Shown: in pieces, positions 8,945-41,249 of the stretch
Numbering within the stretch: position 1 is the first letter of the stretch
Layout of the letters: each line of letters begins with the position of its first letter
Origin: an uncultured Candidatus Saccharibacteria bacterium
Lineage (GTDB): Bacteria; Patescibacteriota; Minisyncoccia; Phycocordibacterales; UBA5272
Length of the DNA: 64,000 nucleotides
Direction: 5' to 3'
NCBI GenBank assembly: GCA_964491805.1
Contig: CAZBGU010000001.1
Coordinates: forward strand, 91,023-155,022
Notes under the pieces: model-generated
What the model was told of the DNA's origin: nothing
Database searches by the model: none
What the model saw: only the letters and a program-made list of their open reading frames with translations
Made by a program: the position numbers and the translations under genes

Positions 8945-9061
8945 CCACAGCACATGACCTGCGTCGTGTGTGTGGGGAATCGAATGGGGGCCGAGGAGTC
9001 TCCTGTTTCGAGCGAAGCGAGAAACGAGACGAGGTGGCCGATTCCTCGTGGGCCCGCCACA

Positions 9062-9097: not shown

Positions 9098-9215
9098 GTA
9101 TAGTTGGGTCAATAGCGAGAAATTGGCATCTAGTCTTAGATCGTATGGATCATTGGTGCACATGATCAGTAATGTAATGAAATGTAATTTCAATAAAAGT
9201 TTGCCCTCTTAGTTA

Positions 9216-10085: not shown

Positions 10086-10102
10086 GGTGAGAATGTCAAC
10101 GG

Positions 10103-10890: not shown

Positions 10891-11634
10891 TTAGTTTGTA
10901 GTCTTCGACTCTTGTCTTCGTTTTTCTATGATATGAACAAAGGCGTCTTCTAAATCACGGTACCCATTGCTGATACTTTTTGGTGTGTCGACACGTAAGA
11001 GCTCCCCGTTATCAATGATGCCCACGGTGTCGCAGATTTCTGCAACATCACCAAGAATGTGTGTATTGATAAAGATAGTCTTGCCTTCATTTTTGCGACC
11101 AAGAATAATCTTTTTAACCTCTGCTCGTCCAAGTGGATCAAGTCCATCGAGTGGTTCGTCGAGAAAAAGAATATCTGGATCATTGATTAGTGCTTGGGCG
11201 AGACCAAGTCGCTGGAGCATACCCTTCGAATACGTCCTTATGCGCTTGTGACGTGCATGCGTGAGATTAACTTCATGGAGCATTTTTGTGATTGCTTCAT
11301 GTTTGTTCTTAAGTTTGAATAGTGTCGCGACAAAATCGAGGAATTCTTCTCCTGTTAGATACTGATAAAAAAGAGGGGACTCAGGCATGAATCCAATTTT
11401 CTTATGTGTTGCTATATCAGAGGGAGAACCTCCTGATACTGTTATGGTTCCGTGTGTTGGCTGGGAAAGTCCAACAAGCATTTTGATTGTTGATGTTTTT
11501 CCTGCGCCGTTAGGTCCTATGAACCCAAATACAGTGCCTTTTGAAATTGTAAGGGAGAGGTCTTTGACTACGTGCACGAGTTTTTTGTCTTTCCCGTACG
11601 ACTTTGAAAGGTTGGAAATAATAATGTCATTCAT
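10891..11634 (-). CDS. ABC transporter ATP-binding protein
   Basis: Walker [10 protein letters not shown], signature YSKGMLQRL, Walker [13 protein letters not shown]. Start moved to the internal ATG (MNDIIISNL) at 11634. Confidence 0.85.
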
Positions 11635-11839
11635 ATAGATAGTATAGTAGCAAATGTAAGGAGCTGGGCAACATTGACAAAAACTTGCAGATAACACTAC
11701 GTACATACCTTCATTTCTCTTAACAAGGTGTACAGAGTACCCGAGGTGTGGTTTTTGAATGTAGTTTGCCTGTTACACGTATTATGAAGATAAGTTATCA
11801 ACTAGTTTCTGACACATACTGCCTATATACTGTGTCTAT

Positions 11840-12907
11840 ATGGATAAAAAAATTCGCGTTGGTATTAATGGTTTTGGACGTATCGGGAGAGCTTTCTTCA
11901 AAGTTGCTTTTGAGCGTGATGATATGGAGGTGGTTGCTATTAATGATTTAGGTGATGTCCACAATCTTGCGTACTTGTTGCAGTATGACACTGTATATCG
12001 TGTGTCTCACTTTGATGTACATGCTGAGATACATGAGGATACAAAAGAACAGTATCTTGTGATTGAGAGTGATGACGGACGAGAAATGCGGGTGAAGGTT
12101 ATGCAGGAAAAAGATCCTGCACTTATTCCATGGGGAGCTAACTCTGTTGATATTGTGGTTGAGTCTACAGGACTCTTTGTTGCGTATGATAAAGCATCAG
12201 CTCACTTAAAGGGTGGAGCTAAGGCGGTTGTTATCTCAGCTCCAGCAAAGAAAGGAGAAGATGAGTCTGTGCACGGTGAGACAATTCTTCTTGGTGTTAA
12301 TGAAGAGAAGTTCGGTACATGTGCGGTGACTTCGAATGCTTCATGTACAACTAACGCATCATCTCCTGTTATTGCTATTCTTGACGCTGCTATTGGTATC
12401 GAGAAAGCTATTCTTAACACCGTGCACTCATACACTGCGTCACAAGGAATTGTCGACGGTCCTAACAAGAAGGACTTTCGTGAAGGTCGTGCTGCTGCGC
12501 AGAATATTGTGCCGTCATCTACTGGTGCTGCTATTGCGGTTACAAAAGCATTCCCTTCACTTGAAGGGTTGTTCGATGGTGTTTCTATTCGTGTACCAAC
12601 ACCTGCTGGATCGATTGCTGATATTACTTTTATTACAAAGAGACCAACCACAGTAGAAGAGGTTAATACAGCATTAAAGGATGCCTCGATGTCTGACCAC
12701 TGGGGGGACATTTTCCAAGCAACTGAGGAGCAGTTGGTCTCGAGCGATATCATTGGTTTGCCATACGCATCTATTGCTGATCTCTCAATGACTCGTGTTG
12801 TGGGAGGTAACTTAGTAAAAGTGCTTGCGTGGTATGATAACGAGATGGGGTATACACATACGCTTGTCGATCATGTGGCAAAGGCAGGAAGAGCTATTGT
12901 AAAGTAG
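11840..12907 (+). CDS. gap: glyceraldehyde-3-phosphate dehydrogenase
   Basis: 355 aa. NAD-binding INGFGRIGR; catalytic SNASCTTN. Confidence 0.9.
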   Translation: MDKKIRVGINGFGRIGRAFFKVAFERDDMEVVAINDLGDVHNLAYLLQYDTVYRVSHFDVHAEIHEDTKEQYLVIESDDGREMRVKVMQEKDPALIPWGANSVDIVVESTGLFVAYDKASAHLKGGAKAVVISAPAKKGEDESVHGETILLGVNEEKFGTCAVTSNASCTTNASSPVIAILDAAIGIEKAILNTVHSYTASQGIVDGPNKKDFREGRAAAQNIVPSSTGAAIAVTKAFPSLEGLFDGVSIRVPTPAGSIADITFITKRPTTVEEVNTALKDASMSDHWGDIFQATEEQLVSSDIIGLPYASIADLSMTRVVGGNLVKVLAWYDNEMGYTHTLVDHVAKAGRAIVK

Positions 12908-13017
12908 TTTTGTTCTCTGTCTGTATCACGTTCGATAGAAAAGAATACGCGTAGCAACCCAAGGTGTCACGTGTATTCTTTTCTAAAGACATAAAGAGGT
13001 TGTATACTATGTGATAT

Positions 13018-13476
13018 ATGAAAATTTATCTCGCAACAGATCACGCAGGTTTTCCATTAAAGGAAGAAATTAAGCAATATTTAGTAGAAAAAGGGGAAGA
13101 GGTTGTTGATCTTGGTGCACGTACTCTTGTAGAAGGTGATGACTATCCGTCATATATGGCTGACGCTGCGCGTCATGTACAGCAAGATACAATGCACGAA
13201 CCATCGATAGCGGTAATATTCGGCGGGTCAGGACAAGGTGAGGCAATAGTTGCCAATCGTTTCCGACATGTACGTGCAATCGTTTATGCTGGTGGTGACC
13301 TGGAGCTTGTTAAGCTTGGAAGGCTACATAATGACGCAAATGTGATTTCGTTTGGTGGACGTTTTGTTACGTTTGATAAAGCAAAGGAAGCACTTGATCT
13401 TTTTATGAGTACACCATTCTCACACGAAGAGCGACATGCAGATAGAATTATTCAGATCGAAGAGACAGTGAAGTAG
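13018..13476 (+). CDS. rpiB: ribose-5-phosphate isomerase B
   Basis: 152 aa. MKIYLATDHAGFPLKEEI start typical of RpiB/LacAB. Confidence 0.85.
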   Translation: MKIYLATDHAGFPLKEEIKQYLVEKGEEVVDLGARTLVEGDDYPSYMADAARHVQQDTMHEPSIAVIFGGSGQGEAIVANRFRHVRAIVYAGGDLELVKLGRLHNDANVISFGGRFVTFDKAKEALDLFMSTPFSHEERHADRIIQIEETVK

Positions 13477-13483
13477 GTCAGGT

Positions 13484-14485
13484 ATGGAACACTCTCCTTT
13501 TTCAGACGCCGGACTTCATCCTGATCAGTTGGAAAAAGAGCAAGCTCTTGTCGAACCATCAATAAGGTCGGTACAAGAGACTATACAAAAAATAGACATA
13601 AACACAATTATTGATATTCTCTTTGGGTTATATTCACGAACTCGTGGCATTGCCAAAGCAGAAGAAACGAAAGAACAGTTTAGGCATCGTGTATATCCGC
13701 ATATCATTGTAAAATACTCTGACGACATAAACCTCAAACATTATGGGGAGCGCTTTGTTTCGCAAAATGAGCCACCACAGGCGTATTCTCTCCATGGTAG
13801 TATTGTTTTTTTGGCAAGAGAAATAGTTAACAATGATGGCACGTTAGGTAGTCTTGGCGATTTTTTTATTATAAAACTACTGATTCACGAAATGCTTCAC
13901 TCAATTTCGACGGTACAGACTATCGACACAACCACAGGAGCAGCGGTAGAACTTTCAGGTGTTTCGAAAAATGTTGGACAAAGGGAGGGAGGTGAGTTCC
14001 GTGTTATCAATGAGGGACTAACTGAAGTTATCGCTGATGCTGTTTTTTCAGAGTACTTAGCAAGGACAGGAGAGTTGTCTCGTTATCATGAAAACGAAGG
14101 TTACAGCGATAGACAAAAGCTGGTAAGCCGCTTTGCTGGTTACTTACGAGAAAGATATGCACTCATGCTATTTGTGCACGAGCTTTCTAACGAGACGAAA
14201 GTTTCTGAAGGGGAGGTGTATCAAGCTCTCCTTACTGAGTATCTGGCTACTGGAGATATCTCAAGGAGTGAAATTATTGATGAATGTAAAAGTAATGAAG
14301 TGGTACAAAAGATGCTTCGACAATTTAGAGATAACATTATCGATGAACAGGATTTACCGGGTATTGACGATTTAGAAAAGATTATATCTAGCTTTACTAT
14401 AAAAGAGCTTGCTCATGTACATAAACTAGTCGGTCGAGATTATATTGGCGAGACAAACAAAAGGAAAGTTTTGAGAGGAAAGTGA
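13484..14485 (+). CDS. hypothetical protein with HExxH zinc-metallopeptidase-like motif
   Basis: 333 aa. LIHEMLHS (HExxH) motif. No other recognisable family. Confidence 0.45.
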   Translation: MEHSPFSDAGLHPDQLEKEQALVEPSIRSVQETIQKIDINTIIDILFGLYSRTRGIAKAEETKEQFRHRVYPHIIVKYSDDINLKHYGERFVSQNEPPQAYSLHGSIVFLAREIVNNDGTLGSLGDFFIIKLLIHEMLHSISTVQTIDTTTGAAVELSGVSKNVGQREGGEFRVINEGLTEVIADAVFSEYLARTGELSRYHENEGYSDRQKLVSRFAGYLRERYALMLFVHELSNETKVSEGEVYQALLTEYLATGDISRSEIIDECKSNEVVQKMLRQFRDNIIDEQDLPGIDDLEKIISSFTIKELAHVHKLVGRDYIGETNKRKVLRGK

Positions 14486-24628: not shown

Positions 24629-25174
24629 GTGGTTTGTGGTAGGTTGAGTCCCATCGTATCTTTTTTATTGATAGCGGTCAAATTAGCAGCTCTAATGTGT
24701 TGTGGGTGGCTCTACCATTTTGGATGTTTTTGTGTGGTAAACTCTGTAGTAATGAACCTTCGCGGACTACTACAAAAAATGAGCATAGATCGTCTTGCAT
24801 CATATGTTGTACCAATTAATCGGTACACAATATACGTACTTACTATTTTTATTTGGGCCCCACATGGTGCTAAGGAGTGCGTTACTGTTTGTAATGGTCC
24901 CAATTTTGTTGCACCGATGATTTTTACTTTTTTGGCACCAAACTGGACGATGGACATGTCGTTACATGGATGGGTAATGCAACTACTGTTTTCTCCTCCA
25001 ATTTTTTTGCTTGTTTATGCAATCTTTCGTTTTGCAAAAAAGAAGTGGGGAATATTCCTCGAAGTGTACATTGTGAGATGGACAATCGTGTGGTATGGGG
25101 TGCTTGCATATTATAATTTTGTATTTTGGTATGGACCTCTTCGTCAATTTGTCTTTCCACTATTTGTTTTTTAA
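24629..25174 (+). CDS. hypothetical membrane protein, first gene of the ferric-reductase/b5 operon
   Basis: Hydrophobic, aromatic-rich. Ends 20 nt before the ferric-reductase start. True start may be internal. Confidence 0.4.
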   Translation: MVCGRLSPIVSFLLIAVKLAALMCCGWLYHFGCFCVVNSVVMNLRGLLQKMSIDRLASYVVPINRYTIYVLTIFIWAPHGAKECVTVCNGPNFVAPMIFTFLAPNWTMDMSLHGWVMQLLFSPPIFLLVYAIFRFAKKKWGIFLEVYIVRWTIVWYGVLAYYNFVFWYGPLRQFVFPLFVF

Positions 25175-25194
25175 GACACTATACATATACACTT

Positions 25195-26523
25195 ATGACT
25201 ATTCCACACAAAATTTCTAGAATGTTGTGGGTTCCTGCCCTCTCGGTGGTTATAGGGGTGCCGGTGCTTTCATGGCTACTTCATGCTTCCTTCGCGAGTA
25301 GCTTATCTTCATCATATTTTTTTCTTACACAAGTTGGGCAAATAACGGGAATCATCGGAGCTCAACTTTTTGCTTTCACACTAGTGCTAAGTGCTCGTAT
25401 TAAAGTAGTAGAGTATATCTTCGGTGGTCTCGATAAACTCTATGTAATACATCACCGTACAGGTGTTATATCGTTTGTCTTGCTTGCTATTCATCCGATT
25501 ATTCTCGCATTTCGCTATCTCGACGATGGGTTGGAAGGCGTCATGAATTTTCTTGTTCCTGTTAACAACACTCTTCCTAGAGATTTTGGTATTTATGCAG
25601 TTATTATCATGCTGCTGCTTTTATTTGTAACATTTTATGGATCGATCTTTTCGTACCGGTCACTTAAGAATGCACATCGCTTTATGGGGGCTGCATTTTT
25701 TTTGGGAACACTTCATATTTTTTTGATACCAAGTTCAATGAGTGATGATATTGCTCTCAAGATTTCATGCCTTGGCATGGCGGTAGTTGGGTGCCTTGCT
25801 TTTGTCTATAGAACATTGCTGGGGGCATACGTGGTAACACGGTACGACTATAATGTTAGCTCCGTGAATGATATAGGGCAGGGGGTCGTCGAAGTAACAC
25901 TCAGCCCTCATAAAGAAATAATGGAACATCTTCCTGGTCAATTCGCAATGCTTTCTCTTACCCATTCAAAAGTAGTCCCTGACGAAGAACATCCTTTTAC
26001 AATTAGTTCCAAGAGAGATAATGGAGAGATACGTTTTTCGATAAAAGCACTTGGTGATTATACGAGCCTTCTCTCTGGCGTTACTGTTGGTACAAAGGCA
26101 ACCGTAGAAGGGCCATATGGTGAGTTCTACTATGGATATGGGTCAAAGACACAAGTCTGGGTTGCGGGTGGAATTGGGGTTACACCGTTTGTGAGTATGG
26201 CTGAGGCACTCCTTAAAGAGGAGAGTATTGCGTATACTATTGATTTCTACTATTCTGTTCGTTCGGATAAGGATGGAGCATATAAGGATTTGTTTGCAAG
26301 GTTAGCAAAAAAGCATCCAAGCTTCACATTTCACTTTATGCCAAGTGATACGTCTGGGTATATAACGGGGGAAGTTCTCCTGAAAGAGATTGGTGATATT
26401 AAGAAGCGGGATATCTTTGTTTGCGGCCCACCACCAATGATGGCCGCACTGACTGAATCACTCGTGTCTCTTGGTGTGTCGAAGCGATATATTCATTCTG
26501 AGTGTTTCTCATTATTAAAATAA
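25195..26523 (+). CDS. ferric reductase / NADPH-oxidase-like transmembrane flavocytochrome (FRD-FAD-NAD domains)
   Basis: TM His pairs HRTG...x13...HPI and HRF...x13...H (bis-haem ligands); FAD motif HPFTISS; NAD motifs GGIGVTPF and CGPPPM. Start set to the ATG at 25195. Confidence 0.8.
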   Translation: MTIPHKISRMLWVPALSVVIGVPVLSWLLHASFASSLSSSYFFLTQVGQITGIIGAQLFAFTLVLSARIKVVEYIFGGLDKLYVIHHRTGVISFVLLAIHPIILAFRYLDDGLEGVMNFLVPVNNTLPRDFGIYAVIIMLLLLFVTFYGSIFSYRSLKNAHRFMGAAFFLGTLHIFLIPSSMSDDIALKISCLGMAVVGCLAFVYRTLLGAYVVTRYDYNVSSVNDIGQGVVEVTLSPHKEIMEHLPGQFAMLSLTHSKVVPDEEHPFTISSKRDNGEIRFSIKALGDYTSLLSGVTVGTKATVEGPYGEFYYGYGSKTQVWVAGGIGVTPFVSMAEALLKEESIAYTIDFYYSVRSDKDGAYKDLFARLAKKHPSFTFHFMPSDTSGYITGEVLLKEIGDIKKRDIFVCGPPPMMAALTESLVSLGVSKRYIHSECFSLLK

Positions 26524-26527
26524 GATC

Positions 26528-27088
26528 ATGACAATGAAAAACTTTTTTACATTATTCTCATTTTTGTTTCTAGGTGTTGTTGTTGCAATCTTGGTTGCTG
26601 GTTATATAAGTAAAGACAACCGATTGGCGCGTGAAGCTTACAGCAAAAAAACACAAGAACAGTTGATTCAGATAGCATCTTCAGTTGAGAGCTCTCAAAA
26701 ACAAATAGATTCTCTTGAAGAAAAGTTTAATGAGAGTCAGTCTGTACAGACCAGTACTACGGCAGGGTCGAAAAAGACAATAACCACAAAGTCTCAAACA
26801 CCAAGTAAAGCAAAGCCCACAACACCTGGAACGAAATTAACGAGCGAACTTGTTGCTAAGCATTCAACTGCATCTGACTGTTGGATTATTGTTTCCCAGA
26901 AAGTGTACTCTGTTTCTTCATACATATCTGAGCATCCAGGAGGAAAGTCTGTAATTGTAAAAATGTGTGGAAAGGATGCGACTACTGTTTTTACCAGTAG
27001 AGGTGACACGGGTGAACATTCTTCTACTGCGTGGCAGTTGCTAGGTCAGTTCTTGGTTGGTTCACTTGGTTCTACTGTTACATTGTAG
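26528..27088 (+). CDS. membrane-anchored cytochrome b5-domain protein
   Basis: 186 aa. N-terminal TM. C-terminal b5 domain with SDCWIIV...EHPGG...GKDAT...GEHS, carrying both axial His positions. Start 4 nt after the ferric-reductase stop. Confidence 0.8.
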   Translation: MTMKNFFTLFSFLFLGVVVAILVAGYISKDNRLAREAYSKKTQEQLIQIASSVESSQKQIDSLEEKFNESQSVQTSTTAGSKKTITTKSQTPSKAKPTTPGTKLTSELVAKHSTASDCWIIVSQKVYSVSSYISEHPGGKSVIVKMCGKDATTVFTSRGDTGEHSSTAWQLLGQFLVGSLGSTVTL

Positions 27089-27112
27089 AAAATATATTTA
27101 CTCGCATCGTAT

Positions 27113-30100
27113 ATGCCTTTACCGTATTTAGGAACAATCTTTCTCACATGGACAATTTTTGTTGGTGGGCTTACGTCTGTACTTGTTCATGTAGAGAATA
27201 GCAGGCTTTCTGAATCTGTATCGATAGTACCTCAGGTGTCTTCTCAAGAAAGGGAAGAAGCGAACGGAGGGGTTGATATTTCTTTCATTGCCAAAAAAGC
27301 TGAGAATCTTAAGCGTAGTATTGCAACATCACATATTGCGGAACGCTTTGCTTCGTCAGTTGATGGCACGTTAGGAGCACAAGAGGGGAGTGACTCAGCA
27401 TCTTCATCGGCAAGTATTGTAGAAGTAGATGATGCTGAAAATTCAGTTGTCGGTAACCTTCTTGGTCTTTTTAGTAAGAAGTCAGATTATTCTCTTAAGG
27501 TAGATATTATTGGAGATGGACATGTGATCTATTCGTCTGGTTCTATTTGTGGAGGTGTGTGTAGTGTTGCGTACCATGCAGACTCAGTGGCAACACTTAT
27601 CGCAACCCCAGGTCCAGATAGTACGTTTGCTGGTTGGGGTGGTGCTTGCAAAGGTAAGGATGTTTGTACAGTAAAGATGAATGACAAACGTATAGTTAGT
27701 GCTACTTTTACTAAGCTTCCTTCTTCAGAATTGAAAAACACGCTTCCGAAGCAACCTGTTGTTACGGAAGCTGAAGTTACAAGGCATGCAACACAGTCTG
27801 ACTGTTGGATTATTGTTTCTCAGAAAGTGTACGCAGTATCGAGCTACCTTTCTCTGCACCCAGGAGGAAAATCAGTCATTGTAAAAATGTGTGGCAAGGA
27901 TGCGACCGCCGTCTTTACAGATAGAGGCGGGACTGGCGCCCACTCTCGTTCTGCTTGGTCGCTTCTTGGAACATTTATAGTTGGTGTGCTACCTTCATTT
28001 GATCAGACAAAGGTAAGTGCGGTCAAAGAATATACACCTGAAGATGTTGCAAGACATGCGTCACCGGCAGATTGTTGGATTTCTATTTTGGACAGTGTGT
28101 ATTCTGTTTCGAGTTATATAGCTTTGCATCCCGGGGGTAGACTTAATATTGAAAGAGTCTGCGGTAAAGATGCCACTGAAGTTTTTAACAATCGTGATTC
28201 TACAGGCACTCATTCAGCATACGCATGGTCACTTCTTAAAGCTTATCTTGTGGGAGCTCTTACAATTTCTGTTCCAACAGCAAGCATCTCTAATTCTGCA
28301 TCAACTACAAAAGTAACAACTGTGTCTCCGGTTGGTAATTCGTCCGAATTTACACTTTCACAGATTGCAGCACATTCTACAAAGACAGATTGTTGGATAA
28401 TCGTTTCTGATAATATCTATTCAGTTGGAAGTTATATTGCAATGCACCCAGGAGGAACCTCTGTAATTACAAACCTCTGCGGTAAGGATGCTACAAATGG
28501 GTTCACTACTCGAGGTGGAACTGGCGCACACTCTGGTTCAGCATGGACAATGCTTGGAAGTTATTTTGTTGGCGTTGTTGCGGGAACTGTTCCTGCACAG
28601 GTACAAGTTCCAAACACCCCTACATCGCCATCTGTCACACCAACTCCACCACCCAACGTTTCTTCAATAACGTATTCTCTTCTACAGGTTGCCGCACACG
28701 CTACACAGGCAGATTGTTGGATAATTGTCTCTAACAATATTTATTCAGTCTCTAGTTACATAACGATGCACCCAGGAGGTATGAATATCATCACTGGCCT
28801 ATGTGGGAAAGATGCTACAAACGATTTCACAACCCGGGCGGGAACAGGTTCGCATTCTACGTATGCATGGGGATTGCTTGGCGGATATCTTATTGGAAGT
28901 GTTGGTGCTGCTTCGACGGTTATTCCTCCAACTCCTACACCGGCACCATCACCAACCCCCGCACCAACTCCTACACCGACAGCAACATTCACGCTTGCAC
29001 AGATTGCTACACATGCAACACAATCTGATTGTTGGATTGTGGTATCTAATAATATTTATTCAATCGGAAGCTACCTTGCAATGCATCCAGGTGGAATAGC
29101 TGTGATTACCCCTTCATGTGGTAAGGAGGCAACCACTGCATTTACTACCAAGAATAAAGGCAGCTCACATTCAACGTATGCGTGGGGTCTCCTTGGTGGA
29201 TATATTGTTGGGTCTGTCACTGGAACAACTCCAGCGCCAGTTCCTGCTCCTGTTCCAACACCGACACCAACCCCTACGCCAACACCAAGTGGTGGCCCAT
29301 ATACTGCAGCACAGATTGGCACACATGCTACACAATCTGATTGTTGGATAGTTATCGGAACGAATGTGTATTCTGTTGGTTCATATACATTATCACATCC
29401 GGGCGGAGTCTCTGCTATTACAAATCTTTGCGGAAAAGATGCAACTACTGCTTTTGCAACTAAAAATGGTCTCGGGGCACATTCATCATATGCACAATCT
29501 CTACTTGGTGGTTATCTTGTAGGCGCACTTTCTGGTCCGCCACCATCTTCAACACCAACACCTACACCAACATCAAGTACATACACTGCTACTCAGATTT
29601 CTTCGCACTCGTCTGTGTCAGATTGTTGGATAGTAATTGGAACGAATGTGTATTCAGTGGGAGCATATCTTACTCTTCATCCAGGAGGTGGGTATGCAAT
29701 TAGTAAATATTGTGGAAAGAATGCTACAACTGCTTTTGGTAATCGTGGAGGAACCGGAACGCACTCAGCTGCTGCAAACTTGGCACTTGGTGGATTCCTT
29801 ATTGGAACTCTCTCTGGAACTGCTCCAGCATCTACACCGGTTAATCCTGCCCCATCGTTTGTGTACAACCAAACAGATGTTGCTGCACACTCATCACCAT
29901 CAGACTGCTGGATCATCGTTAGTGGTTCTGTGTACTCAGTTGCACCGTATGTTTCTCTCCATCCGGGAGGAAGAACGAGAATCACGAACCTGTGCGGTAA
30001 GGATGCTACAACATCGTTTAATAACGTTGGCCATTCAACAAAAGCAAAAGGCATTTTAGGTGGTCTGCTTATTGGGACGTATTCAGCTACAGTTTCCATT

Positions 30101-30718
30101 CCTCCATCGGCTGTTAATGGTGTCTGTGGCCCGGCAAACAACACATCGGTTTCGTTGGCACCATTAGCTGGGCTCTGTGCAATAGGAACCGCATCAAGTG
30201 TATTTGGTTCAGGGCCATTCACATGGAGTTGTACTGGGTCAAATGGTGGAGTGACTGCAAGTTGTAGCGCAACCCTTGCTTCCGTCGTAACTCCACCATC
30301 GCCAATTGACGGTGTGTGTGGGGCAGCAAACAATACGTCCGTATCTTCTGCTCCTACAACAGGTCTGTGTACATTAGGAACTGCGTCAAGTGTGTCTGGT
30401 TCAGGACCATTCACGTGGAGTTGTGCTGGGTCAAATGGTGGAGTAGCTGCAAATTGTAGTGCAACAAAAACTGTTACAGTAACGCCGCAGACATATTCGG
30501 TAACAGTGACTAGTTCTCTAGTACTCAGTTCTTCTGGTATGACTCTCAACACAGGTGATAAAGTTGTGTTCACTTATACAAGTGGTTCAGGTGAAGCGAA
30601 GATTTCAGTAAGTCCGTCTTCATCAGCATCTCCAGCGAGCTTTACTCTTGATAAAGATATTACAACCAAAACAGTGACAATAAGTGCGTCAGGTGTGTAT
30701 ACATTTATTGCGCGTTAG
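27113..30718 (+). CDS. giant secreted/surface protein with 8 tandem cytochrome b5-like haem-binding domains, N-terminal InlB-B-repeat-like domain and C-terminal Cys-rich repeats
   Basis: 1201 aa. Signal-anchor N-terminus. Eight units of DCWI(I/V)...Y...HPGG...CGK(D/N/E)AT...G.HS joined by Pro/Thr-rich linkers. Two 56-aa Cys-rich repeats near the C-terminus. Confidence 0.8.
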   Translation: MPLPYLGTIFLTWTIFVGGLTSVLVHVENSRLSESVSIVPQVSSQEREEANGGVDISFIAKKAENLKRSIATSHIAERFASSVDGTLGAQEGSDSASSSASIVEVDDAENSVVGNLLGLFSKKSDYSLKVDIIGDGHVIYSSGSICGGVCSVAYHADSVATLIATPGPDSTFAGWGGACKGKDVCTVKMNDKRIVSATFTKLPSSELKNTLPKQPVVTEAEVTRHATQSDCWIIVSQKVYAVSSYLSLHPGGKSVIVKMCGKDATAVFTDRGGTGAHSRSAWSLLGTFIVGVLPSFDQTKVSAVKEYTPEDVARHASPADCWISILDSVYSVSSYIALHPGGRLNIERVCGKDATEVFNNRDSTGTHSAYAWSLLKAYLVGALTISVPTASISNSASTTKVTTVSPVGNSSEFTLSQIAAHSTKTDCWIIVSDNIYSVGSYIAMHPGGTSVITNLCGKDATNGFTTRGGTGAHSGSAWTMLGSYFVGVVAGTVPAQVQVPNTPTSPSVTPTPPPNVSSITYSLLQVAAHATQADCWIIVSNNIYSVSSYITMHPGGMNIITGLCGKDATNDFTTRAGTGSHSTYAWGLLGGYLIGSVGAASTVIPPTPTPAPSPTPAPTPTPTATFTLAQIATHATQSDCWIVVSNNIYSIGSYLAMHPGGIAVITPSCGKEATTAFTTKNKGSSHSTYAWGLLGGYIVGSVTGTTPAPVPAPVPTPTPTPTPTPSGGPYTAAQIGTHATQSDCWIVIGTNVYSVGSYTLSHPGGVSAITNLCGKDATTAFATKNGLGAHSSYAQSLLGGYLVGALSGPPPSSTPTPTPTSSTYTATQISSHSSVSDCWIVIGTNVYSVGAYLTLHPGGGYAISKYCGKNATTAFGNRGGTGTHSAAANLALGGFLIGTLSGTAPASTPVNPAPSFVYNQTDVAAHSSPSDCWIIVSGSVYSVAPYVSLHPGGRTRITNLCGKDATTSFNNVGHSTKAKGILGGLLIGTYSATVSIPPSAVNGVCGPANNTSVSLAPLAGLCAIGTASSVFGSGPFTWSCTGSNGGVTASCSATLASVVTPPSPIDGVCGAANNTSVSSAPTTGLCTLGTASSVSGSGPFTWSCAGSNGGVAANCSATKTVTVTPQTYSVTVTSSLVLSSSGMTLNTGDKVVFTYTSGSGEAKISVSPSSSASPASFTLDKDITTKTVTISASGVYTFIAR

Positions 30719-34916: not shown

Positions 34917-34989
34917 GCCACTTTAGCTCAGTTGGTAGAGCAACGGTTTTGTAAACCGTAGGTCCACAGTTCGAATCTGTGAAGTGGCT
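34917..34989 (+). tRNA. tRNA-Thr (anticodon UGU)
   Basis: Manual cloverleaf: acceptor GCCACTT/AAGTGGC; D-stem GCTC/GAGC; anticodon stem ACGGT/ACCGT with loop TTTGTAA; T-arm CACAG-TTCGAAT-CTGTG. No encoded CCA. Confidence 0.88.
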
Positions 34990-35024: not shown

Positions 35025-35726
35025 ATGATTGACACACGTAAATATACATTCACTTTCTTTGTTACTGTGTCTATTTTTGCGACTGCGTTTTTTGCATCCA
35101 CTTTTTTTTCTAGTAAACGTGTAGAGAATGTGAAGTTCATCCAAGATAATATTGCAATCGATATCCTATCAAGCGAAACCCAGTTTGATTTACTTAAAGA
35201 AGTTCCGTGTCAGAATGTTAGTGATTCTATGCTTTCACCAGAGCTTAGTATTCTTGGAGATAAACTTTCACACACAGAAAATGATAGAGGAGAAAAAGAT
35301 GATGATGTCATTTATCTCAAGAAGTACTACTCATTATTACAGGTCAAAGATTTTCTTCTTTCTAAGAAACTTGCAGAAAAGTGTGGTGTTGTTAAGAAGC
35401 CTGTTTTTATTATTTATTTTTATTCCAACAAAGGCAATTGTCAGGACTGTATTAAGGAAGGCTATGTGCTTACTCGTCTAAAAGAAAAGTATCCAGAATT
35501 GCGGGTGTATTCTTTTGACTACAACCTTGACCTTTCCGTTATTGATTCTCTTAAGGCAATCTATCGGATAACTGACAATATGCCTGCGCTTGTCATTGAT
35601 GACAAGACATACACAGGGTTTAGGTCGGTGGTCGAACTTGAAAAACTTCTCCCTGACACTCTAAAAGAGGCAACCTCGACGCAAGCGACAGTTACGTCAT
35701 CGTCTTCCTTGAAGAACACAAGGTAA
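35025..35726 (+). CDS. hypothetical membrane-anchored protein with CxxC (thioredoxin-like?) motif
   Basis: 233 aa. N-terminal TM. CQDC motif. Immediately upstream of the GT2 gene. Confidence 0.4.
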   Translation: MIDTRKYTFTFFVTVSIFATAFFASTFFSSKRVENVKFIQDNIAIDILSSETQFDLLKEVPCQNVSDSMLSPELSILGDKLSHTENDRGEKDDDVIYLKKYYSLLQVKDFLLSKKLAEKCGVVKKPVFIIYFYSNKGNCQDCIKEGYVLTRLKEKYPELRVYSFDYNLDLSVIDSLKAIYRITDNMPALVIDDKTYTGFRSVVELEKLLPDTLKEATSTQATVTSSSSLKNTR

Positions 35727-35730
35727 AAAA

Positions 35731-36996
35731 ATGTTTGATCAAATTTTACAAGCTCTGATGTACCCGTTCTTGTTTCTTTCAATGTATTTTCAAATACTAT
35801 TACTTCTTTCTTTCTTTGAAAATAGTAAGAGAATTAAAGATGAAGAATCTCAGGACGTTAGTTATTTCCCTTCGGTGACGATCGCTGTTCCCTGTTGGAA
35901 CGAAGAAAAGACATTAGCAGGAACACTCGATTCATTGCTTGCTCTTGATTATGATAAAAAGAAACTCTCAATTGTAGTTGTTGATGACGGAAGTAAAGAC
36001 AGGACACTTGCGATAGCAAAATCATATGAACATAAGCATCCTGGGGTTGTTGTTGCAATAACTAAGCCTAATGGCGGCAAGCATACTGCTGTAAACCTCG
36101 CCCTTGAACAATCGAGGAGTGACTTTTTCGGATGTCTTGACGCCGACTCTTTTGTTCACCCAAAAGCACTTAGGACTATTATTTCATATTTCCAACACCA
36201 TAAAGATGCAATGGCTGTGACTCCTTGTATTCATATAAAATCGCCAAAAACTATTATTCAACGAGTTCAGGCTGTTGAATATCTTATGGGGGTTTTTCTA
36301 CGTAAGGCATTTGGCCAGCTTGATGCAATCCAAGTTACACCGGGTCCTTTCTCTATTTTTAAAAAAGAAGTATTTGAAATTGTCGGTAATTATCGTAAGG
36401 CGCACAATACAGAAGACTACGAAATTACGCTGCGTATGCACAAGCATCATCTAAGGATCATGAACTCACACAAGGCTCTTGTGTATACTGTCGGCCCTTC
36501 TACATTTCGTGGGTACTTTCTTCAGAGGTTACGATGGGCGAGGGGATTTTTGGAAAACTCGATAGACTATCGCGAGCTGTTTTTTAAAAAAGAATATGGT
36601 AACTTTGGCATGTTTACTTTGCCTATGGCATTTCTTTTTGTTTTTTATGGAGTTTACGTTGCGTTCTTTTTCTTGTATACAACTTTAAAGCATTATAGTA
36701 ATCTTATTAGTCAATGGATGGCAGTTGGCATTCATCCTCGCATCCCAACATTTGATATTTTTTATTTTAATACGACAATCGTCTCTTTTGTTGCTATGGT
36801 CATGCTCACCATGTTTTTATTTACTATTTATATAGGTAGAACATTATCAGATGACAGACAAGAGTTGTATCGCAACTTTCCGTTTTTCTTTTTTATTTAT
36901 CCATTGTTCGGAACGATTTTATTTCCTAGGGCAGTTTTTGACACACTGACACATAGAAAAAATGAGTGGGTACTACAAGATACAAAGAAGTTCTAG
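35731..36996 (+). CDS. family 2 glycosyltransferase, processive membrane-integrated type
   Basis: 421 aa. DDGSKD (DxD), QRLRWARG (QxxRW) and C-terminal TM helices. Confidence 0.8.
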   Translation: MFDQILQALMYPFLFLSMYFQILLLLSFFENSKRIKDEESQDVSYFPSVTIAVPCWNEEKTLAGTLDSLLALDYDKKKLSIVVVDDGSKDRTLAIAKSYEHKHPGVVVAITKPNGGKHTAVNLALEQSRSDFFGCLDADSFVHPKALRTIISYFQHHKDAMAVTPCIHIKSPKTIIQRVQAVEYLMGVFLRKAFGQLDAIQVTPGPFSIFKKEVFEIVGNYRKAHNTEDYEITLRMHKHHLRIMNSHKALVYTVGPSTFRGYFLQRLRWARGFLENSIDYRELFFKKEYGNFGMFTLPMAFLFVFYGVYVAFFFLYTTLKHYSNLISQWMAVGIHPRIPTFDIFYFNTTIVSFVAMVMLTMFLFTIYIGRTLSDDRQELYRNFPFFFFIYPLFGTILFPRAVFDTLTHRKNEWVLQDTKKF

Positions 36997-37137: not shown

Positions 37138-37941
37138 ATGGAAGGACACCCACACCCAATTACACTTGCAATTGCTCGCATTTCACAGATTTTTTCTGAG
37201 ATGGGGTTCGATACTGTTGATGGGCCAGAGCTCGAAGATGAGTGGCATAATTTTGATGCCTTGAATGTTCCTAAAGATCACCCTGCACGAGACATGCAGG
37301 ACACTTTCTGGATAAAGACAGAATCTTCACAGACTGGTATAGACAGCAAAAACCAAGTACAACGTACAGGAAAGGACAAGTTTGGTGACCCTGTTGGGTA
37401 TGTGCTTCGTACACATACAAGCAATATGCAGATTCGAACAATGGAGAATCACGTGAGAGAAGGCAAAGCGTTTCCTATTGCAATTTGCTGTCCAGGAAAA
37501 GTGTTTCGGAATGAGGCTACTGATGCTACTCATGAAGCACAGTTTCATCAAGTTGAGATGCTGTATGTTGGCAAGGATGCGTCTCTTTCGATGATGCTTG
37601 GAGTCATCGAAAAGTTTTTCTCTGAATTTTTTGGAAGCAATCTAGTTGTTAGGTTGCGTTCAAGTTATTTTCCTTTTGTTGAGCCGGGAAACGAGGTAGA
37701 TATGCAGTGTTTTAAGTGTAAAGGAAATGGATGTAATATTTGTAAACAGACTGGATGGATAGAGATCGGTGGAGCTGGAATGGCACACCCAAAAATTCTT
37801 GAGTCAGCTGGGATAAATCCACATGAATATCGAGGTTTCGCGTTTGGTTGTGGAATCGATAGGATGATTATGCTTAAGTATGGTATAGACGATGTCAGAC
37901 TCTTGTATAATGGCGACTTGCGGGTGGTTAATCAATTCTAG
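37138..37941 (+). CDS. pheS: phenylalanine--tRNA ligase alpha subunit (N-terminally short)
   Basis: 267 aa. FDALNVPKDHPARDMQDTFWI class II motif 2 region; motif 3 GFAFGCGIDRM. Confidence 0.85.
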   Translation: MEGHPHPITLAIARISQIFSEMGFDTVDGPELEDEWHNFDALNVPKDHPARDMQDTFWIKTESSQTGIDSKNQVQRTGKDKFGDPVGYVLRTHTSNMQIRTMENHVREGKAFPIAICCPGKVFRNEATDATHEAQFHQVEMLYVGKDASLSMMLGVIEKFFSEFFGSNLVVRLRSSYFPFVEPGNEVDMQCFKCKGNGCNICKQTGWIEIGGAGMAHPKILESAGINPHEYRGFAFGCGIDRMIMLKYGIDDVRLLYNGDLRVVNQF

Positions 37942-37942
37942 T

Positions 37943-38812
37943 ATGGAACTTATTGTAAAACATCGTACAAAGATTTTCGTATACGTTGGGGTTACTCTTG
38001 TAAGTATTTTTATTATCGGAGCGAGTTTTTGGTACAAAAGTCAGTACCTCAAAGAGATTGAATATATATCTAGTAGCGTAGACCGTTCCGACAATCAATC
38101 AGAAGGTGTATCTACTACAATATCTAGGGAGACAGATGTAAGCACAATCGACATTGAATGTCCCCGTATTCCACCTCAGTTTGAGGGTGCGGTGTTGGCA
38201 AATGAGGCAATAAAAAAGATATACAAGATACGTGCAGATCAGTTCGATCAAGATGTAAAGGACTCACTTTCTAATACGAATTTACCACAAGAGTTTAAAG
38301 GTAGTGGAGTGTCCTCATACTACGATGTTTCTTATGATGTGGTAGCTTCTTCATCGAGATATATCTCGTACCTTGTCAAAGGGGAACTTTTTTTTGTTGG
38401 CAGTGCACATCCGTCCCATACGATAGATACATTTATCTTTGATATCAAGAACAAGAGACTTATTAAGCCGGAAGAAATGTTTACAGCTTCATCTTCTTAT
38501 CTTGTATTGCTTTCGGATCTCACGCGAAAAGACTTTAGTATTCGGAACGCCGGTGGGAATGTAGAAATTGTAGATACTAATGACAACAATGCGGAAGGAT
38601 ATATTGTTGATGTCTCTCGAGAGAATGAAGGATTCAAACCAACACAAGAGAACTTTTCGAGAATTCTTCCAACTAATGATGGTCTAATTGTCTATTTTAA
38701 TGAATATCAGATTGCTCCATATTTTGTTGGTCCAGGACAGTCGTATGTACCTTATGCTTCGCTTAAAAAAATTATTGACAAAGAGGGTGTGCTTGGAGAG
38801 TATATAAAATAA
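37943..38812 (+). CDS. hypothetical secreted/membrane-anchored protein inserted between pheS and pheT
   Basis: Start at the ATG 1 nt after the pheS stop. N-terminal TM. No recognisable family. Confidence 0.45.
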   Translation: MELIVKHRTKIFVYVGVTLVSIFIIGASFWYKSQYLKEIEYISSSVDRSDNQSEGVSTTISRETDVSTIDIECPRIPPQFEGAVLANEAIKKIYKIRADQFDQDVKDSLSNTNLPQEFKGSGVSSYYDVSYDVVASSSRYISYLVKGELFFVGSAHPSHTIDTFIFDIKNKRLIKPEEMFTASSSYLVLLSDLTRKDFSIRNAGGNVEIVDTNDNNAEGYIVDVSRENEGFKPTQENFSRILPTNDGLIVYFNEYQIAPYFVGPGQSYVPYASLKKIIDKEGVLGEYIK

Positions 38813-38837: not shown

Positions 38838-41249
38838 ATGAAATTTTCAAAGAATTGGTTGCAAGATTATATTGTTGAATCACTTCCTTCTGATGAAGTG
38901 ATTGAGTCAGAGCTTAATAAGAAAGCTTTTGAGGTTGAGGGGGTTGCTGTGGTTGCGCGACCAAGAGTCGCACAAGTAGATGCAGGCAATACTGATACAG
39001 TTTTTGATATTAAGGTATTACCAAACCGTGCACATGATGCACTCGGTCATCATGGTTTGGCATATGAACTATGTGCTTCCCTCGGCCTCACCTTTAACAA
39101 GGAGAAGGACGTTATTGATGATCAGTCATATTATGACAAAAGCGTTGAAGGGGTATCTGTTTCAATAGAAGATCATTTGTCGTGCTCTCGATTTATGTCT
39201 GTACGAATTGATCATGTTGTAGTTGAGGAGAGTCCGGAATGGTTACAAGAGAGACTTGCAGCAATAGGGCAGAGAAGCATTAACACTATTGTTGACATCA
39301 CAAACTATGTGCAATTTTCATTAAATAAACCAATGCATGCATACGACGCTCGCACCATTAAAGGTACGCTGTCTGCACGTATGGCAAAGAAGGGAGAAGA
39401 GTTACTTACACTCGATGACAAACATCTTATCCTTGATGAGCATACGCTTGTAATTGCTGATGATGAGAAAGTTCTTGGTCTTGCTGGAATTAAAGGTGGA
39501 AAATATAGTGGTATTCAAAGCGATACAACGAGCATTATTCTTGAGAGTGCTAATTTTGATCCTGTTCTTATCAGAAAAACATCAGAACGATATGGTATTA
39601 AGACGGATGCTTCGAAGCGATTTGAGAATGGGATCGCAAACAACCTTGTTATTGAGGGTTTACATATGACCTCAAATCTCATTCATGCTTTATGTGGAAG
39701 CGCACACAAAGGTCAGGTAACTGATGTGTATCCAAAAAAAGATACACCGTATTATGTTGGTATTTCAAAGTTAGAGCTCAATAATATTCTCGGCACATCA
39801 TATTCTGATGAAGATATATCAAAAACTCTTACGAGACTCTCATTTCCTTACGAGGTGATCGTTCCTCATGAATATATTACAACAACATACCCAGCACTTA
39901 TAGGCGCAGGATATAAGAACCCATCGAGCATGCGAGAAGATGCTCCTCATTTGTTTAGCTGCTCTTCTCTGGTGAGTTATCTGTATAAAGGTATTTGGAT
40001 GCCTAGCCTTTCTATAGATAAGTTTGTCTTTTCGAAGCGAATCACAAGGGAAGAGTTACGTTTTGGCGATCTTATTTTTACAAACACAAATGAAGGAGTT
40101 ATCCGATATGAGTCGGTTGAGTTTATGCGAGGAACTAAAGTTCCTGAAGGAGTTGATCATGTCGCTATGTACTGCGGCGACGGTGTTGTTATACATGCGA
40201 CAAAAGTAAAAGGAATGGTAGTAAAAGAATCTCTCGATACATTTGTAAATGGAAGAAATATCGTTGGGTACGGAAGAGTAGTTGATGATCTCTATGAAAA
40301 ACGTTATGTTGTCCGTGTCCCTTCCGTGCGGCTTGATATTCGTATAAAGGAAGATCTTGCCGAAGAGGTTGGTCGCATCATTGGTTATGATAAGCTAACC
40401 CCGTCACTTCCAAACCTTTCTCGAAAAGGTGTATTACCAAAGGTAACACATTACGAGAATAAAGTTCGTGAGATACTCTTTGCACATGGGTTTTCAGAAG
40501 TAATTACGTATTCATTTGGAGATGTTGGTGAAGTGGAGCTTATGAAGGGTCTAGCCGACGATAAGGAGAAGTTGCGATCAAATCTTGGGAAAGGTGTTCA
40601 TGATGCGGTTATGCGCGGTCTTTATAATGCTCCTCTTCTTGGTCAAAAAACAATTAAAATTTTTGAATTTGGTAATGTGTTTACAGGGGGTAAAGAAGTT
40701 AAACATTTAGCTATCGCTCTTGATGATGGTGGTAAGAAAACTAGTTTTACCGAAGAGCTGGAGATGATTCTCGCTGCAATCAAGAGAACACTTCCTGTTA
40801 TATCAATAGAATGTGATACTGTTTCTACGAAACCATATGTTATCGAGATTGACTTTGATACACTAATCTCATCACTTCCAGACCCAACATCATATGAAGC
40901 TCCTATTTATTGTTTACCGTCAAATCATGAATCAGATGCTTCGTCTCGCTTTGTTTATAAGCCCGTCTCTCCTTATCCGTTTATTTCTCGTGATATTGCT
41001 GTGTGGGTACCTGTTTCTGTCTCATGGGAGGATATCAGAGGTTTTTGTGATCAAGTTGGGAATGCTCTTGTTGTTCGTATTGATTTATTTGATACGTTCA
41101 CAAAGGAGAAAGATGGTGTCACAATGACATCATATGCATTTCGACTCGTATTTCAAAGTTACGACAGGACACTGACAGATGATGAAGTAAACACGTGTGT
41201 GCAAGAGTATCACCAAATCTTACAAGAGAAAGGGTACGAGATTAGATAG
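38838..41249 (+). CDS. pheT: phenylalanine--tRNA ligase beta subunit with inserted NlpC/P60-like domain
   Basis: 803 aa. MKFSKNWLQDYI start; B3/4, B5, B6-7 and C-terminal FDX-ACB regions recognisable. About 150 aa inserted in B5 (39873-40330) carry LFSCSSLVSYLY...GDLIF...HVAMYCGDGVVIHA. Confidence 0.85.
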   Translation: MKFSKNWLQDYIVESLPSDEVIESELNKKAFEVEGVAVVARPRVAQVDAGNTDTVFDIKVLPNRAHDALGHHGLAYELCASLGLTFNKEKDVIDDQSYYDKSVEGVSVSIEDHLSCSRFMSVRIDHVVVEESPEWLQERLAAIGQRSINTIVDITNYVQFSLNKPMHAYDARTIKGTLSARMAKKGEELLTLDDKHLILDEHTLVIADDEKVLGLAGIKGGKYSGIQSDTTSIILESANFDPVLIRKTSERYGIKTDASKRFENGIANNLVIEGLHMTSNLIHALCGSAHKGQVTDVYPKKDTPYYVGISKLELNNILGTSYSDEDISKTLTRLSFPYEVIVPHEYITTTYPALIGAGYKNPSSMREDAPHLFSCSSLVSYLYKGIWMPSLSIDKFVFSKRITREELRFGDLIFTNTNEGVIRYESVEFMRGTKVPEGVDHVAMYCGDGVVIHATKVKGMVVKESLDTFVNGRNIVGYGRVVDDLYEKRYVVRVPSVRLDIRIKEDLAEEVGRIIGYDKLTPSLPNLSRKGVLPKVTHYENKVREILFAHGFSEVITYSFGDVGEVELMKGLADDKEKLRSNLGKGVHDAVMRGLYNAPLLGQKTIKIFEFGNVFTGGKEVKHLAIALDDGGKKTSFTEELEMILAAIKRTLPVISIECDTVSTKPYVIEIDFDTLISSLPDPTSYEAPIYCLPSNHESDASSRFVYKPVSPYPFISRDIAVWVPVSVSWEDIRGFCDQVGNALVVRIDLFDTFTKEKDGVTMTSYAFRLVFQSYDRTLTDDEVNTCVQEYHQILQEKGYEIR

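Follow-up and report, generated by a model that had tools for sequence, protein, structure and literature searches.

The 64,000-nucleotide stretch of DNA analyzed here (contig CAZBGU010000001.1, positions 91,023 to 155,022; hereafter the window) carries a pheT gene, encoding the beta subunit of phenylalanyl-tRNA synthetase (PheRS), whose B5 domain encloses a second domain, a putative papain-like cysteine hydrolase of the NlpC/P60 (C40) family. We find the same nested domain in PheT throughout a large Paceibacterota clade, and we find it again, still flanked by both halves of B5, as a free protein encoded beside a single-chain PheRS of mitochondrial type. Judging from its sequence and modeled fold, the nested domain is very probably a genuine, selected and catalytically competent NlpC/P60 module. 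As to what it does, we lean with modest confidence toward an old nested module that acts as an autonomous cytoplasmic cysteine hydrolase, with a peptidoglycan-type peptide as its likeliest class of substrate.

The nested domain and the PheT that carries it

The gene, its domains and the codons of the predicted catalytic residues are located as follows.

38838..41249, + strand: pheT, PheRS beta subunit with nested NlpC/P60 domain, 803 amino acids (aa), a single uninterrupted open reading frame (ORF)
38838..38990, + strand: B1 N-terminal segment and B2-less junction (residues 1-51), from alignment to A. baumannii PheT
39183..39698, + strand: B3/4 editing domain (residues 116-287), Pfam B3_4, E 1.3e-58
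39750..39863, + strand: B5 N-terminal half (residues 305-342), Pfam B5, found in two stretches
39864..40298, + strand: nested NlpC/P60 (C40) cysteine-hydrolase domain (residues 343-487, ~145 aa), from Pfam, AlphaFold2 (AF2), Foldseek and a PDB profile search
39960..39962, + strand: codon of predicted catalytic Cys375 (FSCSS), aligned with the Cys of FDCSG
40158..40160, + strand: codon of predicted catalytic His441 (DHVAMY), aligned with the His of HVGIY
40194..40196, + strand: codon of the predicted third triad residue His453 (VIHA), aligned with IHA
40299..40397, + strand: B5 C-terminal half (residues 488-520) with the D500/D506/E509/E510 motif, Pfam B5 profile positions 37-67
40404..40937, + strand: B6/B7 catalytic-like module (residues ~523-700), Pfam tRNA_synthFbeta (523-628), 31.2 bits versus 22.4
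40968..41246, + strand: B8 / FDX-ACB anticodon-binding domain (residues 711-803), Pfam FDX-ACB, E 2.6e-20

According to the AF2 secondary structure, both junctions of the insert fall at the tip of the B5 beta-hairpin, between one strand at residues 338-341 (PYEV) and another at residues 489-493 (YVVRV). Deleting residues 346-483 in silico converts the split Pfam B5 match (49 bits, in two pieces) into a contiguous match of 61.8 bits that covers positions 7-67 of 67. The Pfam family NLPC_P60 (PF00877; threshold 23) matches residues 371-463 within PheT with 32.3 bits and the insert alone with 37.9 bits (E 1.8e-9); the remaining matches of the insert are below threshold and mostly come from the same clan (C92, LRAT, RipA/B/D, MepS), together with two chance-level NCBIfam matches. 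The initial annotation had already placed a C40-like domain within B5, as the Pfam score, the predicted fold and its Foldseek matches, and the B5 domain restored by excision all bear out. Its extent was drawn less accurately, since the span given (39873-40330, residues 346-498) omits the first three residues of the insert and takes in about 10 residues of the C-terminal half of B5.

The predicted structure leads to the same family. With 69 homologues as input, AF2 models residues 300-525 at a mean predicted local distance difference test score (pLDDT) of 96 and a predicted template modeling score (pTM) of 0.89. When this model is compared with the PDB by Foldseek, all 50 of the 50 matches listed are NlpC/P60 family structures, mostly peptidoglycan DL-endopeptidases, at a probability of 1.00. 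The best match is the catalytic domain of C. difficile Acd24020 (7cfl; target-normalized template modeling (TM) score 0.86, root-mean-square deviation 1.9 A), and target-normalized TM scores to stand-alone catalytic-domain structures, such as 7cfl, 9ubf, 8er5 and 6b8c, are 0.7-0.86. The fold is predicted to be papain-like, so an elaboration of B5 that lacks such a fold, which the initial annotation had named as the outcome that would speak against it, fails as an account of the insert.

Searched against the sequences of the PDB, a profile of the module family finds solved NlpC/P60 endopeptidases at E 2.9e-18. The profile alignment pairs FSC375SS with FDCSG, H441VA.Y with HVGIY and IH453A with IHA of the solved enzymes, motifs that we take to hold the catalytic Cys, His and His of the NlpC/P60 family. 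Cys375 precedes His441, which is the canonical, non-permuted order. By sequence and model, the insert is evidently a complete, non-permuted NlpC/P60 papain-like domain nested in B5. Three other identities were considered and rejected. A permuted papain-like enzyme (LRAT, or YaeF/YiiX of C92) would not have Cys before His, and the respective scores are low (C92 15.3 versus 27; LRAT 14.7 versus 24.3). Known editing folds (B3/4-CtdA, YbaK/INS, AlaX, DTD) do not fit, as every above-threshold match of the insert, whether in Pfam, in NCBIfam or among PDB sequences and folds, is to an NlpC/P60-clan family. Nor does a secreted autolysin of the Spr/MepS, CwlO, LytE or RipA type, as the domain sits in a cytoplasmic synthetase with no export signal or cell-wall-binding modules.

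Compared with C40 endopeptidases (7cfl, E. coli MepS/Spr, B. subtilis CwlO/LytE, 3h41 and dipeptidyl-peptidase VI), to which its sequence identity is 18-26%, the insert has the same papain-like fold, the motif order Cys...GDL.F...H.G.Y....HA and the Cys-His-His triad. Unlike them, it is cytoplasmic, has no signal peptide, SH3b or LysM, and is nested in another domain; its family has an 'SSMR.DAP' loop instead of the usual 'WGG' loop and a variable hairpin or loop of 8-50 residues between GDL.F and H.G. This last element, which connects the GDL.F strand to the catalytic His (window residues 415-440), is prone to insertion and deletion, its length ranging from ~8 residues (P0049, P0066, P0070) to ~50 residues (P0046, P0065, P0178). 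This loop is probably situated at the edge of the substrate cleft, where it may adjust specificity.

Outside the insert, the protein is a bacterial PheT. It scores 434.8 bits against the NCBIfam model TIGR00472 (pheT_bact), above the equivalog cut-off of 402.65, and this score and the Pfam domains agree with the earlier alignment of the protein to canonical beta subunits. An identical protein is present in public data (P0072). In the full-length AF2 model (pLDDT 86.5), the insert is among the best-predicted parts, and the top Foldseek matches of that model are all bacterial PheRS beta chains (E 1e-48). The window PheT has the same order of B1, B3/4, B5, B6/7 and B8 as the bacterial PheTs of T. 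thermophilus (1pys/2iy5), E. coli (3pco) and A. baumannii (6p8t), and it keeps the B3/4 motifs and the acidic B5 motif (D-x5-D-x2-EE). Unlike them, it has no B2 (oligonucleotide-binding, OB) domain, it has ~145 residues of NlpC/P60 nested in the B5 hairpin, its partner alpha subunit has no coiled-coil arm, and one gene is intercalated between pheS and pheT. The B3/4 motifs TNY, PMHAYD, GIKGG, LESA and TDAS are 98-100% conserved across 119 orthologues and presumably contain the counterparts of the E. coli editing residues betaN254, H265, E334, T354 and A356. Because these motifs are intact, the insert does not compensate for a dead editing site, and we rejected the proposal that it replaces a decayed B3/4 site. 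We take D500, D506, E509 and E510 to be the Mg2+ ligands shared with the alpha subunit, as in the UniProt/HAMAP annotation of PheT.

The absence of the OB-fold domain, also part of the initial annotation, is clear from the alignment to A. baumannii PheT: residues 1-46 match its residues 1-45 and residue 53 picks up at 155, so that 46->53 in the window protein stands against 45->155. Residue 52 corresponds to TIGR00472 profile position 157, ~100 residues (B2/OB) are absent between 46 and 53, and a short linker (43-49), modeled by AF2 with pLDDT <50, stands in their place. Going by the title of a 2006 report by Roy and Ibba, B2 is said to be dispensable. It is missing in many PheTs of the candidate phyla radiation (CPR), as already published (PMC5370408). 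Consequently, the absence of B2 does not disqualify the protein as a PheT. The alpha subunit is encoded upstream:

37138..37941, + strand: pheS, PheRS alpha subunit, 267 aa, Pfam tRNA-synt_2d, E 7e-91; TIGR00468, 292.6 versus a cut-off of 237.45

The window PheS consists of the catalytic core, with its N-terminal coiled coil absent (the TIGR00468 alignment starts at profile position 68 of 324). In T. thermophilus PheRS, the coiled-coil arm of PheS contacts tRNA. The enzyme encoded by the window is otherwise a canonical bacterial PheRS of the (alpha-beta)2 type, with all of the defining PheT domains except B2, and it has evidently lost both of the classical accessory elements that bind tRNA, namely B2 and the alpha arm.

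Embedded and free forms of the module

We distinguish modules that are embedded in a full-length PheT (T-form) from those that stand alone (S-form). All 120 of the best whole-PheT homologues carry PF00877 together with PheT domains (54-100% identity; 776-826 aa, with one 630-aa fragment). Their source names include Paceibacterota, Parcubacteria group and Nomurabacteria; the organism labels on many metagenome-assembled genome records are generic (e.g. 'uncultured Candidatus Saccharibacteria') and we did not build on them. When 1.84 billion representatives (50% clusters) were searched with a profile, 167 matches had E<1e-30, and among the best 150 of these, ~110 are PheTs of 770-840 aa with the module at about residues 290-530. 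Annotation pipelines label such PheTs 'C40 family peptidase' or 'phenylalanine--tRNA ligase beta subunit-related protein'.

The predicted catalytic residues are conserved in both forms. Across 120 embedded and 69 stand-alone modules, Cys375 is present in 100% of each and His441 in 99 and 100%, respectively; His453 is present in 100% of the embedded modules, and the stand-alone modules have 75% His and 17% Gln at this position. In the 120 embedded PheTs, residues Y359, D368, P370, F373, P389, D394, G410, D411 and R480 are conserved at 98-100%, and altogether ~20 positions of the insert beyond the triad are nearly invariant. The insert's mean consensus fraction is 0.75, within the 0.68-0.87 of the other PheT domains. 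The insert is evidently as conserved as the rest of PheT and under selection, and its nesting is old and fixed across a large Paceibacterota clade. The initial annotation had offered non-conservation of the Cys and His among orthologues as a reason to abandon its proposal, and we find them 99-100% conserved in 120 orthologues. It had also called a peptidase module within a synthetase unusual: the architecture is confirmed, but it is not peculiar to this genome, being the norm in a large Paceibacterota clade. Among related proteins, P0201 (392 aa) and P0202 (397 aa) have B5::NlpC/P60 at the N-terminus followed by ~180 further residues, representing either another architecture or truncated gene calls, and P0196 (1183 aa) has nine NlpC/P60-like repeats.

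A search with the insert alone found 70 Patescibacteria proteins of 115-241 aa (almost all 186-241 aa) at 39-62% identity, with no PheT among them. These stand-alone proteins are composed of the N-half of B5, NlpC/P60 and the C-half of B5, and match PheT residues 300-515 over their whole length. Examples are P0020 ('hypothetical protein A2431_01000', Candidatus Zambryskibacteria) and P0046/P0056 ('C40 family peptidase'), which have the whole module and its triad, at 37-55% identity to window residues 300-515; unlike the window protein, they are free proteins of 190-240 aa with a decayed acidic B5 motif, encoded beside a single-chain PheRS. The stand-alone forms have no N-terminal hydrophobic segment (the mean of the highest 12-residue Kyte-Doolittle windows is 0.50) and no SH3b, LysM or coiled-coil targeting domains. 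The module domain is mildly acidic, with an isoelectric point of ~6.1-6.2 and a net charge of about -2.

Residues D500, D506, E509, E510 and R513 of B5 are 95-100% conserved in embedded modules, whereas the acidic motif is degenerate in stand-alone forms (D 46%, N/A at 506, K at 509, E 33%). The stand-alone forms still conserve the B5 positions Y305 (99%), G308 (100%) and P495 (96%), and their spliced B5 halves match Pfam B5 with 20.6 and 26.1 bits, below the threshold of 28.6. The acidic residues, taken as Mg2+/alpha-interface ligands, have evidently decayed in the stand-alone forms, and B5 plus NlpC/P60 behave as one autonomous module.

We classified 34 loci, drawn from an exact-protein look-up and a scan of one genome per species. 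At all 11 non-redundant stand-alone loci, the module gene directly adjoins a gene for a single-chain PheRS of 380-395 aa, which combines a PheS core (tRNA-synt_2d) with FDX-ACB. Its positions in four loci are listed here; it is also present in L021, L023, L025, L028, L029, L031 and L032.

L001, 6813-8000, - strand: single-chain PheRS
L003, 6821-7963, - strand: single-chain PheRS
L006, 6853-8004, + strand: single-chain PheRS
L007, 6856-8004, + strand: single-chain PheRS

The two genes are co-directional in 6 of the 11 loci, with a 4-nt overlap read in L006 and L007, and head-to-head in 5 of the 11, where they are 0-37 bp apart in two cases read directly. T-form loci that reach far enough upstream all have a short canonical pheS, 46-84% identical to the window PheS, in a stop-to-stop ORF of 256-302 aa (one exception, L033, has 329 aa). 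No mixed case, whether an S-form with pheS or a T-form with a single-chain PheRS, was found among the 34 loci.

Among four single-chain enzymes compared, pairwise identity is 62-71%, whereas identity to the window PheS is 25-27%. Of the solved structures, human mitochondrial PheRS is closest to the single-chain enzymes (196 bits, versus 132 for the best bacterial alpha subunit). The Paceibacterota enzyme, which is the module's neighbor and not the window enzyme, has the PheS core plus FDX-ACB architecture of human FARS2 (3cmq); unlike FARS2, it is bacterial and scores under the NCBIfam cut-offs of pheS_mito (239 versus 258) and SrmL ('PheS-related mystery ligase'; 248 versus 300). It is widespread in Paceibacterota and is often annotated 'hypothetical protein'. 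We rejected its origin as a recent local fusion of pheS with the B8 domain of pheT: identity to the window proteins is 25-27% in the core and 27-34% in B8, and it is human mitochondrial PheRS that the single-chain enzymes resemble most. A related clade has evidently exchanged pheS-pheT, at the same syntenic position, for this mitochondrial-type single-chain PheRS.

The comparison of the two types of locus draws on three further genes of the window.

35025..35726, + strand: conserved 233-aa protein, function not assigned by family (no Pfam/NCBIfam match); syntenic marker of the PheRS locus
35731..36996, + strand: family-2 glycosyltransferase (GT2), Pfam Glycos_transf_2 / Glyco_tranf_2_3, directly upstream of pheS
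37943..38812, + strand: intervening gene, 289 aa, DUF3298/PdaC-like (RsiV-like), membrane-anchored, Pfam DUF3298, E 1e-9

PheT-type loci have the order rpsB - tsf - 130 aa - ... - 234 aa - GT2 - pheS - (variable gene) - pheT::NlpC/P60, continuing downstream with Peptidase_C39_2 - murC - murD - gyrB - thrS. Stand-alone loci have rpsB - tsf - 131-139 aa - ... - 234-241 aa - GT2 - single-chain PheRS - B5::NlpC/P60, followed by (C39_2) - gyrB - thrS - dnaE. The window shares the upstream part of the PheT-type order: the 233-aa protein, GT2, pheS, the DUF3298 gene and pheT. In most T- and S-form loci that reach far enough upstream, orthologues of the 233-aa protein (39-83% identity) adjoin GT2 and the PheRS gene(s), and GT2 orthologues (37-82% identity) flank the PheRS gene. 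Because the flanking genes are common to both types of locus, the stand-alone gene would be an in-situ remnant of pheT.

B5 is an integral domain of PheT. The direction of change would accordingly run from PheT to the stand-alone protein, since the free proteins contain both halves of B5, since the acidic B5 motif is conserved in PheT forms and degenerate in free forms, and since the spliced B5 of the free forms still matches Pfam B5, if below threshold. The number of such events is less tightly constrained. A bootstrapped neighbor-joining (NJ) tree of the module distributes the stand-alone forms over the two sides of a 92% bipartition, whereas an NJ tree of gyrB gathers 10 of 10 stand-alone loci in one 96% clade, with the PheT-type locus L034 weakly nested in it (63%) and another PheT-type locus as its sister. 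A 19-aa indel is common to some PheT forms and some free forms, which fits a long-loop ancestor followed by loop loss.

Candidate functions of the module

In the explanation toward which we lean, the nested domain would be an active cytoplasmic cysteine hydrolase or acyl-transferase, its function would be independent of the beta subunit and of contact with the alpha active site, and B5 would mainly be a structural clasp that ties both ends of the inserted domain. Where the alpha-beta enzyme has been replaced, B5N-NlpC/P60-B5C would be the sole surviving piece of PheT, with its triad kept and its acidic B5 motif lost. Because the module was apparently kept when the beta subunit was discarded, its function is likely to be selected independently of that subunit. 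Its substrates may, tentatively and by analogy, be gamma-D-Glu-diamino-acid bonds in peptidoglycan-derived stem peptides or their precursors in the cytoplasm. A peptidoglycan-type substrate is favored because the nearest sequence and fold neighbors are overwhelmingly such enzymes, because cytosolic members exist (YkfC and dipeptidyl-peptidase VI), because the domain is acidic and not RNA-binding-like, and because pheT of the closest relatives has murC and murD two genes downstream. Among the cytosolic precedents, we take structure 3h41 (a B. cereus NlpC/P60 family protein) to be YkfC, and dipeptidyl-peptidase VI corresponds to 3npf and 3pvq.

Several considerations pull the other way. The proposed substrate class draws on fold and sequence neighbors and a loose gene neighborhood, and the region is a strongly syntenic housekeeping block in which a place next to murC/murD, or next to PheRS, may reflect history and not function. 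Downstream of pheT, the C39_2-murC-murD-gyrB continuation is missing from the window. That pheT is absent elsewhere in the genomes with stand-alone modules is inferred from synteny. Finally, purely structural reasons do not obviously explain the selection on the B5 fold in the stand-alone forms, or the 4-nt overlap of two stand-alone genes with the single-chain PheRS.

These last two observations suit another role, that of a PheRS accessory enzyme, whose Cys-His site would hydrolyze mis-acylated tRNAPhe or a non-cognate adenylate, or would transfer Phe via a thioester to another acceptor. The winged-helix fold of B5 would dock the module on the synthetase or the tRNA and, after loss of the beta subunit and its B3/4 domain, the module would have been kept as a trans partner of an editing-less single-chain PheRS. 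The module does adjoin a PheRS gene at every one of the 11 stand-alone loci (with the overlaps in L006 and L007), it was kept when PheT was dismantled and the B3/4 editing domain discarded, and the B5 fold is still under selection when free. Occurrence in embedded and free forms is also the usual pattern of editing factors: the INS/YbaK domain of ProRS, AlaRS/AlaX and the B3/4/CtdA domain of PheT are likewise catalytic modules that are either embedded or separately encoded. Those, however, are dedicated aminoacyl-tRNA deacylase folds, to which NlpC/P60 is unrelated, with no homology detected in Pfam or NCBIfam. The fold has no precedent in such chemistry; no NlpC/P60 enzyme is known to act on tRNA or adenylates. 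Moreover, the mild acidity of the domain is atypical of tRNA-binding appendages, a second editing site is not evidently needed by embedded forms in which the B3/4 motifs are conserved, the acidic B5 motif (taken as the Mg2+/alpha-interface site) is lost in the stand-alone forms, and in-situ descent within a highly syntenic block can account for the adjacency. On balance, we consider an accessory role unlikely. The more specific proposal that the module is a dedicated PheRS partner, born in the beta subunit and later trans-acting, which would serve in thiol-based proofreading or in Phe capture and transfer, with mis-acylated tRNAPhe, aminoacyl-adenylate or Phe bound for a non-ribosomal acceptor as its substrate, is rather unlikely; if it were true, the papain-like peptidase fold would be a new class of synthetase-associated catalytic domain.

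The loss of both B2 and the alpha coiled coil from the window PheRS raises the question of whether the fold is a non-enzymatic appendage that compensates for them as a structural, oligomerization or tRNA-binding surface. NlpC/P60 binding domains without activity do exist, and RipD entries among the fold matches are described as non-catalytic. Dead NlpC/P60 domains such as RipD are, however, expected to lose the triad, and the near-total conservation of Cys/His/His over 189 sequences of 35-100% identity makes such an appendage quite improbable, as do the acidity of the domain and the fact that it persists where the beta subunit is gone, next to a single-chain PheRS of the mitochondrial type, a type whose solved form (3cmq) works beta-free. 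B2 is, besides, missing generally in many CPR PheTs (PMC5370408). That the insert is an artefact or a recent selfish insertion, i.e. a chimera, an intein or a mobile element in the pheT of one genome, has only the unusual architecture in its favor, and we give it practically no weight. The ORF is continuous, excision restores B5 exactly at the hairpin, and the GC content of the insert (0.38-0.41) matches the rest of pheT. An assembly chimera was rejected given the identical public protein and the same junctions in >100 independently assembled PheT clusters from many studies. An intein or mobile insertion was rejected given the clean hairpin junction, the lineage-wide conservation and the lack of Hint/intein matches in Pfam; the insert starts with PHEY and ends with LYEK, followed by RY, where an intein would have an N-terminal Cys/Ser and a C-terminal His-Asn before Cys/Ser/Thr. 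The initial annotation had likewise argued against an intein, in keeping with NlpC/P60-clan families being the sole above-threshold Pfam matches.

Aminoacyl-tRNA synthetases usually gain tRNA-binding or editing domains, and an intact cysteine-peptidase domain, nested in a synthetase and fixed in a large bacterial clade, is a gain of a different kind. The loci also amount to a natural experiment, in which the beta subunit was apparently discarded and the peptidase module kept while the classical editing domain was dropped, and the occurrence of the module in fused and free forms offers a clean experimental handle. A bacterial single-chain PheRS of mitochondrial type is of interest for the origin of the mitochondrial enzyme and for how translation has been streamlined in the ultra-small Patescibacteria. 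In practical terms, pipelines mislabel essential synthetases ('C40 family peptidase') or leave them unnamed ('hypothetical protein'). In full-text searches of the library available, we found no literature description of an NlpC/P60 domain in PheT or of a mitochondrial-type PheRS in Parcubacteria, and nothing relevant on SrmL. The sequences themselves are public and auto-annotated.

Gene neighborhood and other features of the window

The pheS gene, the intervening gene and pheT are separated by gaps of 1 nt and 25 nt, placing the cognate alpha gene in the same operon. The intervening gene starts with the ATG at 37943, one base past the pheS stop, and the public gene call is likewise 289 aa. Its product has an N-terminal hydrophobic anchor and weak PdaC and RsiV matches (Pfam/NCBIfam), and is membrane-anchored or secreted, consistent with the secreted protein of ~290 aa that the initial annotation had placed between pheS and pheT. 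Homologues of this gene fill the same pheS-pheT slot in L008 and L010. In two relatives, a HIT-family gene lies between pheS and pheT (L008:6566-6997 and L013:2697-3131). HIT hydrolases can hydrolyze aminoacyl-adenylates. Downstream of pheT, the window encodes a 176-aa protein and mnmA. Rfam and promoter/terminator scans found nothing regulatory around pheS-pheT.

The gene for Peptidase_C39_2, a small papain-like protein, immediately follows the module-bearing gene in ~11 PheT-type and 4 stand-alone loci and lies ~1.5 kb downstream of it in one more. It often abuts or overlaps the module-bearing gene, for example at these positions:

L008, 9349-9843: Peptidase_C39_2 gene
L009, 9405-9917: Peptidase_C39_2 gene
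L010, 9358-9849: Peptidase_C39_2 gene
L006, 8660-9238: Peptidase_C39_2 gene

No Peptidase_C39_2 homologue lies within the 64-kb window, and we rejected this protein as an obligatory partner of the module on that ground. At L008:9840-10589 (- strand), there is an arginyl/leucyl-tRNA-protein-transferase-like gene with weak ATE_C and Acetyltransf_6 matches. In L001, gyrB, ddl and thrS (8641-10701, 11065-12155 and 12169-13724) are each split into two or three adjacent ORFs, which probably reflects assembly frameshift errors rather than biology.

Elsewhere in the window, a tRNA gene (34917-34989) lies ~35 nt upstream of the 233-aa gene that heads the syntenic block, and a LOOT RNA motif is found at 5833-5959 (Rfam RF03000, 87.5 bits versus a gathering score of 46.4). 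A 1201-aa ORF at 27113-30718 contains eight tandem cytochrome-b5 domains and is preceded by genes for a 186-aa Cyt-b5 protein (26528-27088) and a ferric-reductase/NOX-like membrane flavoprotein (25126-26523). This Cyt-b5 and flavoprotein cluster (25126-30718) is unexpected in a Patescibacteria-like genome.

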